Shown: piece by piece, positions 3-31,827 of the stretch | Layout of the letters: every line of letters starts with the position of its first letter | Numbering within the stretch: position 1 is the first letter of the stretch | Assembly: GCA_964640425.1 (NCBI GenBank) | Contig: CAZXFC010000002.1 | Span: 1-34,362 of the forward strand | DNA: 34,362 nt | From: an uncultured Candidatus Saccharibacteria bacterium | GTDB taxonomy: Bacteria > Patescibacteriota > Minisyncoccia > UBA11713 > 2-01-FULL-45-33 | Direction of reading: 5' to 3' | Position numbers and translations under genes: made by a program | Notes under the pieces: generated by a model | What the model was told of the DNA's origin: nothing | Database searches by the model: none | What the model saw: the letters and a program-made list of their open reading frames with translations, nothing else

Positions 3-350
3 GGCATCGGCATTACGCCCTACCGAAGCATGATTAAATATCTTATTGATACAAACGAAAAGCGCGACATCGTGCTGTTTTATTCGAACAAAACAGATTC
101 CGAGATTGCCTATAGAGAACTTTTTGAAGAAGCGCGGCAGAAGATCGATTTGCATTTATTCTATATCAACAACGACAAAGACGGTTTTTTGGACGGGCAA
201 AAAATAAAAGAAGTAGTTCCGGATTTCAGGGAACGCGACTTTTATATTTCCGGTCCGCATTCGATGGTGGAAGCATTTGAACGCATTCTCCGCAATATGG
301 GCGTTCCACGCGCCCGCATCAAAACCGATTTCTTCCCCGGCTACGCTTAA
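3..350 (+). CDS. FAD/NAD(P)-binding oxidoreductase, ferredoxin-NADP reductase-like, C-terminal part (5' truncated by window)
   Basis: Frame reads GIGITPYRSM...FYISGPHSMV...TDFFPGY. The GxGITP and YxxGP motifs are typical of the FNR NAD-binding domain. Confidence 0.85.
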   Translation, partial: GIGITPYRSMIKYLIDTNEKRDIVLFYSNKTDSEIAYRELFEEARQKIDLHLFYINNDKDGFLDGQKIKEVVPDFRERDFYISGPHSMVEAFERILRNMGVPRARIKTDFFPGYA

Positions 351-384: not shown

Positions 385-1032
385 ATGCGCAAGGAACCAT
401 TTATTGAAGGGGAGTTTTATCATGTTTATTCACATTCCATAGGCGACATGGTCCTATTCAAAACCGACAGCGATTATGAAAGATTTTTGTCAGTCTTATT
501 CGCGGCTAACGGAAAACGGGATGTATCCCACCTTGATCGCTTTAATGGCCTAAACTTAGTTTCGGACATAAGGGACGGCAAAATAGATATTGGAGATAAA
601 ATGCTGGATATTGCCGGTTTTTGCCTCATGCCAAACCATTTTCATTTGGTTCTTCGGGAAGGGAAAGATGGAAATATTTCATTATTTATGCACAAAATTC
701 TGGTTAGTTTCGCAAAATATTTCAATATCAAAAATGAAAGGCGCGGGCATGTATTTGAGAGAACTTTTGATGCCAAGCATTTATTGAACGATAATTATCT
801 TATGCGCGCGCTGGCTTATATTCATCTCAACCCAAAAGATCTTAATGGCTGGAATAGGAAAGAATCACAATATCCTTGGTCTAGTTTTCAGGATTATGTC
901 GGAGAAAACAGGTGGGGTAAATTGATAAGTATCGACTTTGCGATAGATTTTTTAACTAGGGACAAAAATGAATTCAGGAGTTTTACCGATAGCGCGCGAA
1001 ATGACGACTATACGATATTTGACCGAAACTAA
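385..1032 (+). CDS. REP-associated tyrosine transposase (RAYT, HUH Y1 family)
   Basis: MPNHFHL (HUH), RRGHVF, YIHLNP (catalytic Tyr) and YPWSS motifs; flanked by palindromic repeats. Confidence 0.9.
   Translation: MRKEPFIEGEFYHVYSHSIGDMVLFKTDSDYERFLSVLFAANGKRDVSHLDRFNGLNLVSDIRDGKIDIGDKMLDIAGFCLMPNHFHLVLREGKDGNISLFMHKILVSFAKYFNIKNERRGHVFERTFDAKHLLNDNYLMRALAYIHLNPKDLNGWNRKESQYPWSSFQDYVGENRWGKLISIDFAIDFLTRDKNEFRSFTDSARNDDYTIFDRN
545..569. repeat. Degenerate in-gene copy of the 25-bp palindrome (ATGGCCTAAACTTAGTTTCGGACAT)
   Basis: Same 25-nt architecture, read in frame as NGLNLVSDI within RAYT. Confidence 0.75.
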
Positions 1033-20365: not shown

Positions 20366-20638
20366 ATGCCGAAGAAAAAATCGCTTTCGGGACCGGTTAC
20401 CAAGGAATATCTAGGAGAATACACCGAACAGGTTATTTTGCCCGGAGTTGAGGCTATTCTTGAAAAACGTGTTGGTCCATTAGAAAAAAAAATCGATGAG
20501 GGGTTTGCGGAAATGCGCAAAGGATTTGCGGGCATCGAGAGATCCATTCAAGTTTTAGGAGGCGATATTGCCGAATTAAAAGAACAAAAATTGGATGAAC
20601 GCGTAAGAGTTTTGGAACGAAAAGCCGGAGTTAGATGA
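20366..20638 (+). CDS. Hypothetical coiled-coil protein
   Basis: Heptad-like 90-aa ORF; promoter TTGACA-17-TAGGAT 6 nt before the ATG. Confidence 0.75.
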   Translation: MPKKKSLSGPVTKEYLGEYTEQVILPGVEAILEKRVGPLEKKIDEGFAEMRKGFAGIERSIQVLGGDIAELKEQKLDERVRVLERKAGVR

Positions 20639-20659
20639 CCTAAACTAAGTTTGGGGCAA
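20635..20659. repeat. Distant copy of the RAYT-associated 25-bp palindrome
   Basis: ATGACCTAAACTAAGTTTGGGGCAA, 21/25 identical to 351-375. Confidence 0.7.
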
Positions 20660-22276: not shown

Positions 22277-23371
22277 ATGCGCATTAAGGATTACGACAGG
22301 ATATTTTTTTTGCTCACATCGGCGATCGTTGTTTTGGGGCTTTTTATTCTTGCTTCGGCTTCGCTTTCGATTTCAACGGAACGCTTCGGCCACTCTTATT
22401 ACTTCCTTTTGCATCAAATAATTTTCGGATTGCTTCCCGGATTATTACTGTTTTATCTGGCATTGAAAATACCTTACCGTTACCTTAGAAACATAGCCCT
22501 GCCCTTGCTGCTCTTCGCAATCTTTTTGATGTTCCTGGTTTTCCTGCCAAAGATAGGAATGTATCATGGCGGAGCGCGCCGCTGGATAGTCTTGGGCCCG
22601 TTAACTTTTCAGCCTTCGGAATTTTTGAAATTCGCCTACATAGTTTATTTATCCGCGTGGCTCGAATCAAAATCAAAACAACTGAATACTTTCAAATTCG
22701 GCCTGCTTCCTTTCGCCATCATGACGGCGTTCATCGCTTCTTTTTTGGTTATGCAGCCGGATATCGGAACGCTCGGAGTGCTTATTGCATCCATATTCGC
22801 GCTTTTTTATCTAAGCGGAGTAAAAATGAAACAACTCGGCATTTTAGCGGGTGCCGGAGCGGTCATTCTCTTGATATTGATCATAGCGGAGCCCTACAGA
22901 ATGGACCGGATTACCACATTTTTTTCACCTAACGCTAGCCCGCAAGGTTCCGGTTACCAGATCAACCAGGCGCTGATAGCCACGGGCTCCGGAGGCTTGC
23001 TTGGAAGGGGTTTCGGTATGAGCCGTCAAAAATTCAGTTATTTGCCTGAACCGATCGGGGACTCTATTTTCGCGGTGTATGCCGAAGAAATGGGGTTTTT
23101 AGGGAGCATAACGCTATTGTCTTTATTTTTGCTCTTTTTCGTAAGAGGCATTAATATAACAAAGATGGCGCCGGATTCATTCGGTAGATATTTGGGAGCC
23201 GGGCTGCTTTTTTTAATAACATTCCAGATTATAATCAATATCGCGGCAATAACCGGCATGATACCGCTCACGGGAATACCTCTATCTTTAGTAAGTTACG
23301 GCGGATCAGCCATGATGGTAACAATGCTCGAGGTCGGAGTGATATTCAATATTTCTAAACAAAAAAATTAA
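22277..23371 (+). CDS. ftsW: SEDS peptidoglycan polymerase FtsW
   Basis: GARRW, FQPSEFLK, QPDIGT, YLPEP..DSIF and PLTGIPL..VSYGGS; lies directly before murG. Confidence 0.92.
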   Translation: MRIKDYDRIFFLLTSAIVVLGLFILASASLSISTERFGHSYYFLLHQIIFGLLPGLLLFYLALKIPYRYLRNIALPLLLFAIFLMFLVFLPKIGMYHGGARRWIVLGPLTFQPSEFLKFAYIVYLSAWLESKSKQLNTFKFGLLPFAIMTAFIASFLVMQPDIGTLGVLIASIFALFYLSGVKMKQLGILAGAGAVILLILIIAEPYRMDRITTFFSPNASPQGSGYQINQALIATGSGGLLGRGFGMSRQKFSYLPEPIGDSIFAVYAEEMGFLGSITLLSLFLLFFVRGINITKMAPDSFGRYLGAGLLFLITFQIIINIAAITGMIPLTGIPLSLVSYGGSAMMVTMLEVGVIFNISKQKN

Positions 23372-23479
23372 ATGAACCCCGTAAAAAAATTTTCAATAAA
23401 ATATTTTGGCAATATTTTTTCTATACCAGTAGAAGTCGCTGCTGGACTATTATCTTATAAAAATTTTCTAACGGGGTGA
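23372..23479 (+). CDS. 35-aa element-encoded coupling uORF
   Basis: MNPVKKFSIKYFGNIFSIPVEVAAGLLSYKNFLTG*; starts right after the ftsW TAA and its stop overlaps the murG GTG (GTGA). Confidence 0.6.
   Translation: MNPVKKFSIKYFGNIFSIPVEVAAGLLSYKNFLTG
23377..23476 (+). mobile_element. 100-bp MITE-like element at the murG start codon (TGAA duplication at 23373-23376 and 23477-23480)
   Basis: CCCCGT...ACGGGG terminal inverted repeats; 79/100 gapless identity to the reverse complement of 31067-31166. Confidence 0.85.
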
Positions 23480-24609
23480 AAATACTATTTGCAGGCGGAG
23501 GTACGGGCGGACACTTTTATCCGCTCATTGCGGTCGCCCGCGCCATAAGAAAAATAGCCGAAGAAGAAAACATTGCGCGCATTGATCTTTTCATGATGTC
23601 CGATGATCCGATGGATATCGACATCCTGATGGAGGAGCGGATAAATTTCATCATGATCCCGGCCGGTAAAATGCGCAGGTATTTTTCATTCAGATATTTC
23701 GGCGATTCGCTGAAAACTCTTACGGGACTTTTTACGGCTTTTTGGCGTCTCTATTTCCTGGTGCCTGACGTTATTTTTTCCAAAGGAGGGTACGCGAGCT
23801 TTCCCGTGCTCGCCGCCGCACGCATTTTGAGCATTCCGGTTATGATACATGAATCAGATTCTGTTCCCGGCATAGTCAACGCATGGGCAGGGAAGTGGGC
23901 CTCGCGCATCGGAGTATCATTTGAAGAAAGCCTGAAATATTTTGAAGGGAAAAATGCGGCGCTCGTCGGAAACCCTATCCGTCCGCAAATAATCGGCGGC
24001 AATCTTATGGAAGCAGCAGATTATTTCAAGCTTGAAGAAGGAGAACTCACTCCGCCGGTACTTTTGGTGCTCGGAGGCTCACAGGGTTCGCAACGCATCA
24101 ACGAAACGATCCTCGATATACTCGCCGAGGCTCTCACGAAATATCAAATAATCCATCAAACCGGTAAGGCGCATTATATCGACATATCCGGAAGAGCAAG
24201 CGTCGCACTGGAAAAAAATCAATGGAAGCAACGCTACCATCCTTATGCTTTTCTGGAAGAAGGGGAATTGCGCAACGCATCAAAAGCCGCTTCACTCATA
24301 ATTTCTCGCGCAGGGGCAGGTTCAATTTTCGAAATATCCACCTGGGGAGTGCCTTCTATTTTAATCCCGCTGCCGAGTGCCGCGCAGGACCACCAAAGAG
24401 AAAATGCCTACGCTTACGCCCGTTTCGGCGCCTGCGAGATAATTGAAGAAACCAATCTTACTCCGCATTTGCTCCTGGCACAGATAGACAAAATATTAGC
24501 TGATAAAGCGCGCACTTCCAAAATGCAGCGCTCCGCTCAAGCTTTTTCGCGCATTGACGCCGCCGATAAGATCGCGCGTGAACTGATCAAGGTCGGACTA
24601 CACGATTAG
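23476..24609 (+). CDS. murG: Lipid II GlcNAc transferase MurG
   Basis: GGGTGGH, KGGY, IHESD, GNPIR, GGSQG, SRAG and QDHQ..NA. Confidence 0.96.
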   Translation: MKILFAGGGTGGHFYPLIAVARAIRKIAEEENIARIDLFMMSDDPMDIDILMEERINFIMIPAGKMRRYFSFRYFGDSLKTLTGLFTAFWRLYFLVPDVIFSKGGYASFPVLAAARILSIPVMIHESDSVPGIVNAWAGKWASRIGVSFEESLKYFEGKNAALVGNPIRPQIIGGNLMEAADYFKLEEGELTPPVLLVLGGSQGSQRINETILDILAEALTKYQIIHQTGKAHYIDISGRASVALEKNQWKQRYHPYAFLEEGELRNASKAASLIISRAGAGSIFEISTWGVPSILIPLPSAAQDHQRENAYAYARFGACEIIEETNLTPHLLLAQIDKILADKARTSKMQRSAQAFSRIDAADKIARELIKVGLHD

Positions 24610-30192: not shown

Positions 30193-30465
30193 ATGGCGCA
30201 TACTAAGGCAGGAGGATCGACGCAGAATAATCGTGACTCCCAAGCAAAATATTTAGGTATAAAGCTCTATGCCGGCGAGAAAGCCAAATCCGGCGTAATT
30301 TTGGTCCGTCAGCGCGGGACTAAATTTGTTCCGGGAGCAGGCGTCCGTTTGGGCTCCGACGACACTATTTACGCAATTCGCGAGGGCACTGTCAAATACG
30401 AAACCAAAAGAAAAACTGCATTCGACGGACAGAAAAAATCAGTCAACCTTGTTTCGGTGGTTTAA
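30193..30465 (+). CDS. rpmA: 50S ribosomal protein L27
   Basis: MAHTKAGGSTQNNRDSQAKYLGIK...ILVRQRGTK...DDTIYA. Confidence 0.97.
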   Translation: MAHTKAGGSTQNNRDSQAKYLGIKLYAGEKAKSGVILVRQRGTKFVPGAGVRLGSDDTIYAIREGTVKYETKRKTAFDGQKKSVNLVSVV

Positions 30466-30564
30466 AACGCTAAGAATATAATATTTTTCTTTCCTCGCCT
30501 CGCTTCTGCTCGCTCAGGGTCGCTTGCTAGCGAAACCCGCAAAATATCATATTCTTAGCGTTTT
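30464..30564 (-). repeat. Inverted-repeat element with conserved structured core, copy 1
   Basis: 24-bp arms (23/24 complementary); core related to 31861-31920. Confidence 0.8.
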
Positions 30565-30581
30565 CAATTTTATTATTTTTA

Positions 30582-31067
30582 TTATTGTTTTTTTAATTCC
30601 CTAACTTCAATTTTAACAACCGTCGCCTCAGCGCCGATTTTTATTTTTGCCTCGTGGAGTCCCAACGTTTTAATGGGCGTCTCTATCACAACCATTGATT
30701 CATCCATATTTTCAGGCAAAGGAAATTTAAGGACGTTTAGAGCCTCCAATATTTCTCTTGGGGAAACGGCGGCGTAAAGCGAGACTTCCTGCCCCGCTCC
30801 TTTTTGCGAAATCTCATTGCCTTTCTTTTTTATGACTATCCCCCGCTCCATAAGCGCGGCGCGCAAAGCATGCATAATCTCATGAATGCGTTTTTTTTCG
30901 GCGGTTTGGCTTTTTGATTGCTCTTCAACTTTTTTGATGGCGTCCTCGGTAGCGAGCTCGGCAAGCTTATTGCGAATAAGCATATTTCGGCCGAACCCGT
31001 CGGCTACATCTTTGATCTCCCCGCGCTTTCCCAGCTTGGGTACCTCTTTTAATAAGATTACTTTCAC
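30582..31067 (-). CDS. rplI: 50S ribosomal protein L9
   Basis: MKVILLKEVPKLGKRGEIKDVADGFGRNML...PIKTLG.H. Confidence 0.95.
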   Translation of the reverse strand: MKVILLKEVPKLGKRGEIKDVADGFGRNMLIRNKLAELATEDAIKKVEEQSKSQTAEKKRIHEIMHALRAALMERGIVIKKKGNEISQKGAGQEVSLYAAVSPREILEALNVLKFPLPENMDESMVVIETPIKTLGLHEAKIKIGAEATVVKIEVRELKKQ

Positions 31068-31171
31068 CCCGTTAAAAAATTTACATTATATAATATACCA
31101 ATAGCGACTACTACCGGCAAAGAAACATTATTGCCAACAAAGTTTATTTTAAATTTTTCTACGGGGTTCAT
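31064..31171 (-). CDS. 35-aa element-encoded coupling uORF
   Basis: MNPVEKFKINFVGNNVSLPVVVAIGILYNVNFLTG*; its stop overlaps the rplI GTG. Confidence 0.6.
   Translation of the reverse strand: MNPVEKFKINFVGNNVSLPVVVAIGILYNVNFLTG
31067..31166 (-). mobile_element. 100-bp MITE-like element at the rplI start codon (TGAA duplication)
   Basis: Same length, TIRs and TGAA flanks as 23377-23476. Confidence 0.85.
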
Positions 31172-31178
31172 GGTTTAT

Positions 31179-31207
31179 ATGGTAGCTAAAAAGTCCTAAT
31201 TTTGCAA
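31179..31207 (-). promoter_or_regulatory. Promoter for uORF-rplI (leaderless geometry)
   Basis: TTGCAA-17-TACCAT-7-ATG. Confidence 0.6.
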
Positions 31208-31377
31208 TGAAATTCGGTCCTAAAAATTTAATTCAATATTTAAGGCTAAAATTAAGTAATAAAAATTGTCAAACGCTCATTATACGGCTCTATTACTAGG
31301 TTTTTTAGCTCTTTATTTATAAAAAACTTGATTTTAAAAAAACCTTATTTAGAGCCGTTTTTTTAGATATCATCTAG

Positions 31378-31394: not shown

Positions 31395-31441
31395 TTGACA
31401 ACTCACACATGGAAGAATACACTGGAGTATTAGTTCTTTGA
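31395..31441 (+). promoter_or_regulatory. Sigma70 promoter followed by a boxA-like motif
   Basis: TTGACA-17-TACACT, then AGTTCTTTGA at 31432-31441. Confidence 0.7.
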
Positions 31442-31827
31442 TAGGCGGGTAATAAAGAAAAAAACAACAAGTTGTAATCAACAACTCCCAACACACAATT
31501 AAATACGCACAACCCCAGACAAACCAAACAACCACCAAACAACAGACAAACCACAAACACCCAAAAACTCCAACAACACCAAAACAACCCAAATAAACAC
31601 CAACACAATCAACCCCACAACTTACAACAACCCAAAACATCAACACCCACACCCCAACACTATCCAAACCGCAATCCAACTTATTACCAACAATCCAACA
31701 ACAACCGCCACCAAACCAAACTTCAACTTCCCATAACCAACACGACAAAAAAAACAACCACAAACTCTAAACCATAAATCCAACTCGCCCCGACCACCCA
31801 TGGACCTCTCGCAGGTCCTCTTTTTTT
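31430..31827 (+). ncRNA. Candidate A/C-rich non-coding RNA (unknown family)
   Basis: Bounded by a promoter and a terminator; no ATG-initiated ORF in the tract; GGCGGGT/ACTCGCC closing stem around 332 nt with only 9 G. Confidence 0.5.
31802..31827 (+). terminator. Intrinsic terminator
   Basis: GGACCT-CTCGC-AGGTCC followed by TCTTTTTTT. Confidence 0.7.

Follow-up and report, generated by a model that had tools for sequence, protein, structure and literature searches.

The window analysed here is the whole stretch of 34,362 nt from an uncultured Candidatus Saccharibacteria bacterium. Towards its end, on the minus strand, lies rplI, the gene for ribosomal protein L9 (30582..31067, 161 aa, Pfam domains Ribosomal_L9_N and Ribosomal_L9_C), which opens with a GTG at 31067-31065. 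Residues 1-47 of the GTG-started ORF fit positions 1-47 of the Ribosomal_L9_N profile, so this GTG marks the true N-terminus of L9; no start codon is found earlier in the rplI reading frame. The ancestral rplI start, an ATG at 31171-31169, is situated 104 nt before the GTG, a distance that is not a multiple of 3. It begins an upstream frame of 35 codons (uORF, MNPVEKFKINFVGNNVSLPVVVAIGILYNVNFLTG, 31064..31171, minus strand), whose stop, a TGA at 31066-31064, overlaps the start of rplI in the tetranucleotide GTGA (31067-31064). Between the two starts stands a MITE-like palindromic element of 100 nt (31067..31166, minus strand, CCCCGT...ACGGGG), recognised by its nhmmer family and by the stem that its terminal inverted repeats (TIRs) can form. 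It is bordered by two copies of a TGAA target-site duplication (TSD), the left one being part of ATGAA (31167..31170) and the right one lying at 31063..31066. The TGA of the right copy is the uORF stop, and together with the last G of the element it yields the GTG.

Upstream of the ancestral ATG, on the same strand, a -10-like hexamer, TACCAT (31179..31184, a 4/6 match with no TG extension), is separated from the ATG by 7 nt (31178-31172), and a -35-like hexamer, TTGCAA (31202..31207, 4/6 against TTGACA), precedes it by 17 nt. Within the 20 nt located 5' of the rplI GTG, no spaced Shine-Dalgarno (SD) motif was found, and a run of G directly abuts the GTG. An earlier, sequence-only reading had laid out the minus strand as TTGCAA-17-TACCAT-7 nt-ATG and a TGA overlapping the GTG, which proved exact to the base; its remark that no well-spaced SD precedes the internal GTG was borne out as well, the abutting G-run being all that the preceding 20 nt hold. 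The 35-residue uORF peptide had no Pfam match at E<=1, nor did the element region (30950-31300) have one in Rfam 15 at the same threshold, and over the whole window Rfam returned a single tRNA at gathering score. Two other ways of reading the junction were discarded: recoding of the TGA, as the window is filled by long ORFs under table 11 and a TAA follows two codons past the TGA; and ribosome hopping from the AUG to the GUG, which nothing requires and which would make the open frame needless.

The surroundings of rplI have features of their own. Between the convergent rplI and rpmA (L27) genes, positions 30464-30564 form a near-perfect hairpin of 101 nt (MFE -42.8 kcal/mol, z -7.3), which may serve as a bidirectional terminator or represent a further palindromic mobile element. 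On the other side, a low-complexity spacer, C/A-rich on the plus strand and containing 11-nt repeats, extends over ~31400-31800 and separates rplI from an S41 peptidase gene; most members of the family have the two genes as immediate neighbours, with the peptidase gene first.

A sister element is present in the window, on the start codon of murG (23377..23476, plus strand, TGAA copies at 23373-23376 and 23477-23480). The murG and rplI copies are 81% identical over 110 nt, with no indel (23372-23480), and both read A[TGAA]CCCCGT...(100 nt)...ACGGGG[TGAA]A. The uORF of the murG copy (23372-23479, plus strand) follows an ftsW-family gene (22277..23371, plus strand, FTSW_RODA_SPOVE, E 6e-96), and murG itself (23476..24609, plus strand) has a GTG start rebuilt from the element end and the TSD, with the Glyco_transf_28 domain running from residue 3. 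The sequence-only reading had this copy coupled to the ftsW stop; the TAA at 23369-23371 does directly adjoin the ATG of the uORF, and the GTG at 23476 opens MurG.

In the genome as a whole (an assembly of 88 contigs, 1.15 Mb, 88.9% complete), nhmmer identified 13 copies of the element, with ends CCCCGTTAGAAAATTT / AAATTTTCTAACGGGG and a 4-bp target duplication. The 4-nt flanks vary among copies (TGAA, TGAG, CGAA, TGGA, TAAA, TTGA, TCCA) and agree within each copy, as target-site duplications do. A subfamily with ends TCCCGT...ACGGGA gives ATGAA at the right junction. The end motif was present in 14 of the 20 genomes of the family. Palindromes of 30-121 nt with the same ends also occur in the genome; four that end in CCCCGTTAGA and have matching 4-nt flanks lie at C1:10032-10149 (118 nt), C6:6101-6130 (30 nt), C5:19707-19786 (80 nt) and C48:2410-2530 (121 nt), and the 118-nt palindrome occupies the start codon of a release-factor gene (ATGGA...GTGGA).

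If the element was inserted, one would expect relatives to have kept the empty site. Among 29 relatives, in each of which 170 nt were examined, none has the element at rplI; the gene starts with ATGAA in 25 of them and with exactly ATGAAAGTA in 3, which is the empty site that the sequence-only reading had predicted. The same prediction had a promoter 7 nt before this start, and it finds support in a -10-like box, TACTAT, which two same-genus relatives have 8 nt before ATGAAAATC. MAFFT gave no convincing global alignment of the same-genus rplI upstream regions, and the one line of evidence for homology of the -10 boxes is a local 13-nt match between TTTTAGCTACCAT at rplI and TTTTTGCTACTAT in two same-genus relatives (11/13 identical). 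Matches to the element ends in three same-genus genomes were on other contigs or about 23 kb from rplI. When metagenome contigs were searched for closer rplI relatives, the best full-length match had 41% identity, a single partial match reached 60% over 57 residues, and no extra empty site was obtained. For the murG copy, an exact empty site (...aaattaaATGAAAATACTATTTGC) exists at the ftsW-murG junction of the two nearest relatives (L074 and L075, MurG identity 84-85%); the organism, which is ultra-small and from groundwater, is identified by its MurG relatives as a member of Candidatus Giovannonibacteria (Parcubacteria, CPR).

The element thus has the terminal inverted repeats, the copy-variable TSD and the dispersed copies with empty sites in relatives that define a MITE, and an autonomous partner or transposase with the same ends was not found in this 88.9%-complete genome. 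We conclude that the unit at rplI is an inserted mobile element, MITE-like and belonging to a multi-copy family, a conclusion that is well supported.

The distribution of the copies is highly particular. In the genome under study, 11 of the 13 copies sit on start codons, with ATGAA or ATGAG at the left junction and GTGAA or ATGAA at the right one. The genes below the 11 rebuilt starts encode MurG, L9, RmuC, a GT4 glycosyltransferase, dUTPase, an NAD-epimerase, UDP-glucose dehydrogenase, the single-stranded DNA-binding protein SSB, a glycerophosphotransferase and 2 unknown proteins. In four of these products (MurG, L9, the epimerase and SSB), the Pfam domain sets in at residue 1-3 counted from the rebuilt start. 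A 12th copy (C44:3759) has ACGAA on its left and, on its right, the GTG start of an ABC-2 permease gene. In a sample of relatives (45 loci from 12 relatives, comprising 27 distinct copies by nhmmer), 13 copies occupy start codons, and the duplication is exact in every one of them. Own and relatives' copies together make 24 on start codons, not one of which lies in the reverse orientation. The genome contains ~13,000 TGAA sites, compared to only ~180 crude gene starts reading ATGAA (the crude gene set consists of ORFs of at least 120 codons, taken from the first start codon), so the association with start codons is far from random. The element, then, resides on start codons, and in one orientation. 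At C10:2035-3399 (L266), a single glycosyltransferase operon contains two copies; its upstream GT4 gene extends 50 nt into the second one, so that part of an element encodes the C-terminus of the GT4 protein.

In 8 of the 13 own copies, the frame that runs from the old ATG through the element (frame 0) meets no stop before the overlapping one; for the remaining five frames, the numbers of open copies are 0, 0, 0, 2 and 1. With shuffled element centres, the mean was 1.3 open copies and the maximum 5 in 2000 shuffles. Pooling own and relatives' copies, the frame is open in 16 of the 24 start-codon copies compared to 1 of the 16 others (Fisher P = 2e-4), a contrast that may be inflated because the non-start copies have lower nhmmer scores and are perhaps older. 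In the 16 open copies, the uORF stop overlaps the downstream start as it does at rplI, and the element length is invariably 100 or 103 nt. The copies are related by descent and these counts are not independent; as copies share ancestry, neutral drift was simulated from the nearest open neighbour of each copy. Out of 17 comparable copies, 5.6 would be expected to be open at full distance (P = 7e-8) and 8.9 at half distance (P = 1.5e-4), while 16 were observed. Seven copies of odd length or more than 55% divergence fall outside this comparison, and all seven are broken. Differences among five equal-length copies are spread evenly over the three codon positions (97/102/90). A conserved open frame together with even differences between codon positions indicates selection on translatability and not on a peptide: that selection keeps the frame translatable, with no constraint on the peptide, is well supported.

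These data bear on a different view, in which the 35-residue peptide has a function of its own, as a small protein or as a regulatory leader, and the repeats would be a set of paralogous leader cassettes and not selfish DNA. The frame is conserved, and the copies share MNPV.K at the N-terminal and NFLTG at the C-terminal side of a hydrophobic centre, as such a peptide might. However, the conserved residues are those encoded by the inverted-repeat ends, the codon positions differ evenly, and the two window copies have 21 of 35 residues in common despite their 81% DNA identity, with no Pfam family at the threshold given above. Cassettes inherited as leaders are at odds with the target duplications and exact empty sites, which show insertion, and with host genes that are mutually unrelated. 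We hold a functional peptide to be very improbable.

Conserved translatability in the absence of a conserved peptide is the signature expected if ribosomes must cross the element, and it supports a relay, that is, termination-reinitiation at the GTGA. The uORF is nevertheless broken in 8 of the 24 start-codon copies (C8:26602, C32:4691 and C10:2035 in the genome under study), and at the ssb copy the broken frame stops 5 nt before the ATG. Since copies with a broken uORF lie on real genes, a rebuilt start can be used without the full relay, which is therefore not obligatory.

How ribosomes would come to the old ATG depends in part on the promoter. The one at rplI agrees with the consensus at 8 of 12 positions, below the scan threshold of 9/12, and was accordingly unlisted; the chance of finding TTGNNN-16..18-TANNNT in a given 3-nt window is 0.003 genome-wide and 0.007 in AT-rich windows. 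Across 848 crude ATG genes, the 5' end of TANNNT peaks at -12 (121 genes, for a background of about 27); among these 121 genes, a TG extension shows as T at -15 (57%) and G at -14 (56%). SD-like motifs precede only 123 of the 848 crude genes. Taken together, the two proportions indicate that leaderless starts are common in this genome; 16S rRNA, from which the anti-SD sequence could be read, was not found in this assembly. The genomic peak amounts to a spacing of 6 nt between the -10 box and the ATG, and six other start-codon copies stand exactly 6 nt behind a TG-extended -10. At rplI, the box lies 7 nt away (TACCAT at -13, a position where the genome-wide count of 33 is not enriched over about 27), it is weak, and both the TG extension and an SD are missing. 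A perfect TATAAT ~100 nt upstream is a candidate for an alternative transcription start. With these elements in hand, we predict that transcription likely starts at the rplI ATG or 1 nt before. The relay does not hang on this point, because any signal that brought ribosomes to the ancestral ATG now serves the uORF.

The promoter scan also listed a site within the element itself (31092..31120, minus strand), TTGCCG-17-TATATT with a TG extension, at 9/12. The rplI transcript could thus come from an outward promoter of the element (TTGCCG-17-TGgTATATT), with a start near 31085 and an ~18-nt leader, and L9 would then be made independently of the uORF. This site scores better than the TTGCAA/TACCAT promoter and belongs, by its TG-extended -10, to the usual promoter type of the genome; a 2024 review (PMC10969869) describes promoters borne by MITEs, Correia elements among others; and the copies whose uORF is broken still stand on real genes. 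Against this, no more than 2-3 of the 13 own copies have TGGTATATT, the -35 shows no conservation, the leader would have no spaced SD motif, and the open frame, the lengths of 100 or 103 nt and the stop/start overlap are left unexplained. We consider an internal promoter as the source of L9 to be decidedly unlikely.

The stem formed by the element ends comprises 14 consensus pairs, the outermost being C-G in 9 copies and U-A in 4. In the predicted fold of the rplI transcript (MFE -32 kcal/mol, z -3.4), the stem pairs AUGAA with the GU of GUG. A 4-nt stop/start overlap such as that of the uORF and rplI is the commonest same-strand gene junction in the genome (57 cases).

We propose that a non-autonomous palindromic transposable element of 100 nt inserted at T|GAA within the rplI start ATGAAAGTA. 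The ancestral upstream signals, probably the near-leaderless promoter TTGCAA-17-TACCAT-7 nt, would now load ribosomes on the old ATG, which would open the 35-codon frame through the element, to end at the TGA of the right target duplication. The new GTG, made of the last G of the element and the TG that follows, would overlap this TGA as GTGA, and the paired element ends would hold its G and U in an RNA stem. A ribosome translating the uORF would melt the stem and terminate on the GUG, where it would reinitiate, or let another ribosome in, to produce L9. To the whole of this explanation, a MITE insertion on a start codon followed by a uORF relay to L9, we give a probability of about 0.6. Its observed part comprises the insertion, the target duplication, the empty sites, the multi-copy family with its one-way residence on start codons, and selection that keeps the frame open with no constraint on the peptide; that transcription begins at the ATG, that ribosomes are handed over and how far L9 would depend on the relay are what we infer.

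L9 could also be translated independently at the GUG of a long transcript, either by internal initiation without SD or after RNase III has cut the stem, leaving a near-leaderless 5' end at the GUG; the uORF would then be a tolerated by-product. With SD-like motifs in 123 of 848 genes, initiation without SD must be routine in this organism, and the copies with broken uORFs again fit. Correia stems in transcripts are cut by RNase III, as stated in the review cited above (PMC10969869), and another paper (PMC12641178) describes CPR bacteria as having kept this enzyme. Direct entry at the GUG is opposed by the pairing of its G and U in the predicted -32 kcal/mol structure, and independent initiation offers no reason for the openness of the frame or for the single orientation of the copies. 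We think this route unlikely. In the start-codon relay that we prefer, ribosomes are probably handed on from the uORF to L9.

What moves the element was looked for as well. No transposase was seen beside unpaired element ends, the 20 neighbouring ORFs being housekeeping genes. The IS1380 transposase (NF033539) was found in 0 of the 20 family genomes, and a piggyBac-type transposase (PF13843) gave no match in the genome under study, nor did it in the control genomes. Genes of the Y1_Tnp-like (Y1/HUH) type are present in 19 of the 20 family genomes, nine of them, coding for 213-234 aa, in the genome under study. They are mostly bracketed by different ~20-nt palindromes of their own, and none has CCCCGTTAGA ends; as these flanking palindromes differ from the element ends, the Y1/HUH genes were rejected as the mobilising partner. 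One ORF of 215 aa in the window (385-1032, plus strand) has a weak Y1_Tnp (IS200/RAYT-like) match and is bracketed by copies of one perfect palindrome, found at 348-375, 542-569, 1016-1043 and 20632-20659.

The ends themselves extend further. A scan with the 16-mer end, for which ~280 chance matches were expected in the collection, was restricted to matches with an inverted partner. Among the matches listed, any single one of which may be due to chance, are some from MAGs carrying the labels Omnitrophota, Planctomycetes, Deltaproteobacteria, Nitrospirae and others; in these, the 16-nt end faces an inverted partner at a distance of 26-140 nt, and the 4-nt flanks agree (mostly T..A). Distant-phylum loci among these listed matches include L150, L153, L212 (MAG labelled Omnitrophota), L165, L183 and L218, along with others; at L153, a 103-nt copy lies on ATGAG...GTGAG. 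The same ends in distant-phylum MAGs could reflect horizontal spread or binning errors. Their presence in several distant phyla, among the matches listed, points to a widespread transposition system.

A full-text search of the literature revealed no description of a start-codon MITE with translational coupling, nor of a MITE in Patescibacteria, and searches with 10-mers of the element ends returned unrelated matches only. In the 2024 MITE review (PMC10969869), the phrase 'start codon' is absent. Passages on leaderless initiation and the Candidate Phyla Radiation did not address leaderless genes in CPR.

We suggest, tentatively and with slightly less than even confidence, that the copies represent a class of translationally transparent start-codon transposons in ultra-small bacteria, with features evolved for life on start codons, including those of essential genes (ssb, murG, dut, release factor). 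These features would be a length equal to 1 modulo 3, a frame that is free of stops in one of the two orientations, ends whose pairing gates the new start, and a G or A as last base, with which the duplicated TGA(A/G) becomes a stop overlapping a start. Start codons may be the only safe harbour in a genome with almost no spare DNA, and the class would take advantage of leaderless initiation as well as of stop/start coupling. Should the relay prove real, selfish DNA is able to settle on the most sensitive bases of essential genes in minimal genomes while the host survives, and a gene that was monocistronic and leaderless becomes, by the insertion, coupled to a uORF. In organisms still beyond cultivation, the copies would then provide repeated natural tests of leaderless initiation and of termination-reinitiation. 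Annotation is affected too: gene-calling programs will assign wrong starts to such genes or report the 35-codon frames as hypothetical proteins.

Several known systems can be compared with the element. The Correia elements of Neisseria (CREE/NEMIS) resemble it in being ~100 nt long, coding for no transposase, having TIRs and a TSD, existing in many copies, being co-transcribed and forming a hairpin in the mRNA. Correia elements duplicate TA, whereas the rplI-type element duplicates 4 bp (TNNA-like), and its copies lie on start codons in one orientation, with the start rebuilt and a frame that would be translated up to an overlapping stop. The 4-bp T..A duplication and the CCC..TAGAAA ends also recall piggyBac and IS1380, a likeness over ~9 bases that may be due to chance. 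IS1380 is linked to piggyBac, and has 'CC' ends with 4-5-bp repeats. In primers, piggyBac ends are printed as ttaa followed by CCCTAGAAAG... (PMC3078864). The palindromic elements of Rickettsia (RPE) are mobile and persist inside the genes of a reduced genome by staying translatable, as described in passages of the MITE review (PMC10969869). An RPE forms an in-frame part of the host protein, whereas the rplI-type element is out of phase (104 nt), has its own stop and leaves the host protein unchanged: it is not read in frame within L9, which starts at Pfam residue 1. REP and REPIN sequences, with their RAYT (Y1/HUH) transposases, have in common with the element that they are short hairpin repeats, and Y1_Tnp-like genes occur in the genome under study. 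REPINs are not known to make a target duplication.

The last two comparisons concern translation. Stop/start coupling in operons (ATGA, GTGA) shares with the rplI junction the GTGA overlap, the lack of a spaced SD and a start held in a stem that the upstream ribosome would open; the difference is that the upstream cistron is here a frame made by a transposon and not a gene, and its coupling to rplI is putative. Leaderless mRNAs are well documented in Actinobacteria, Deinococcus and archaea. A possible likeness to them lies in a -10 box 6-7 nt before the ATG, the absence of an SD motif and the genome-wide peak at -12; compared to the leaderless norm of this genome, rplI has a spacing of 7 nt instead of 6 and a weak -10.
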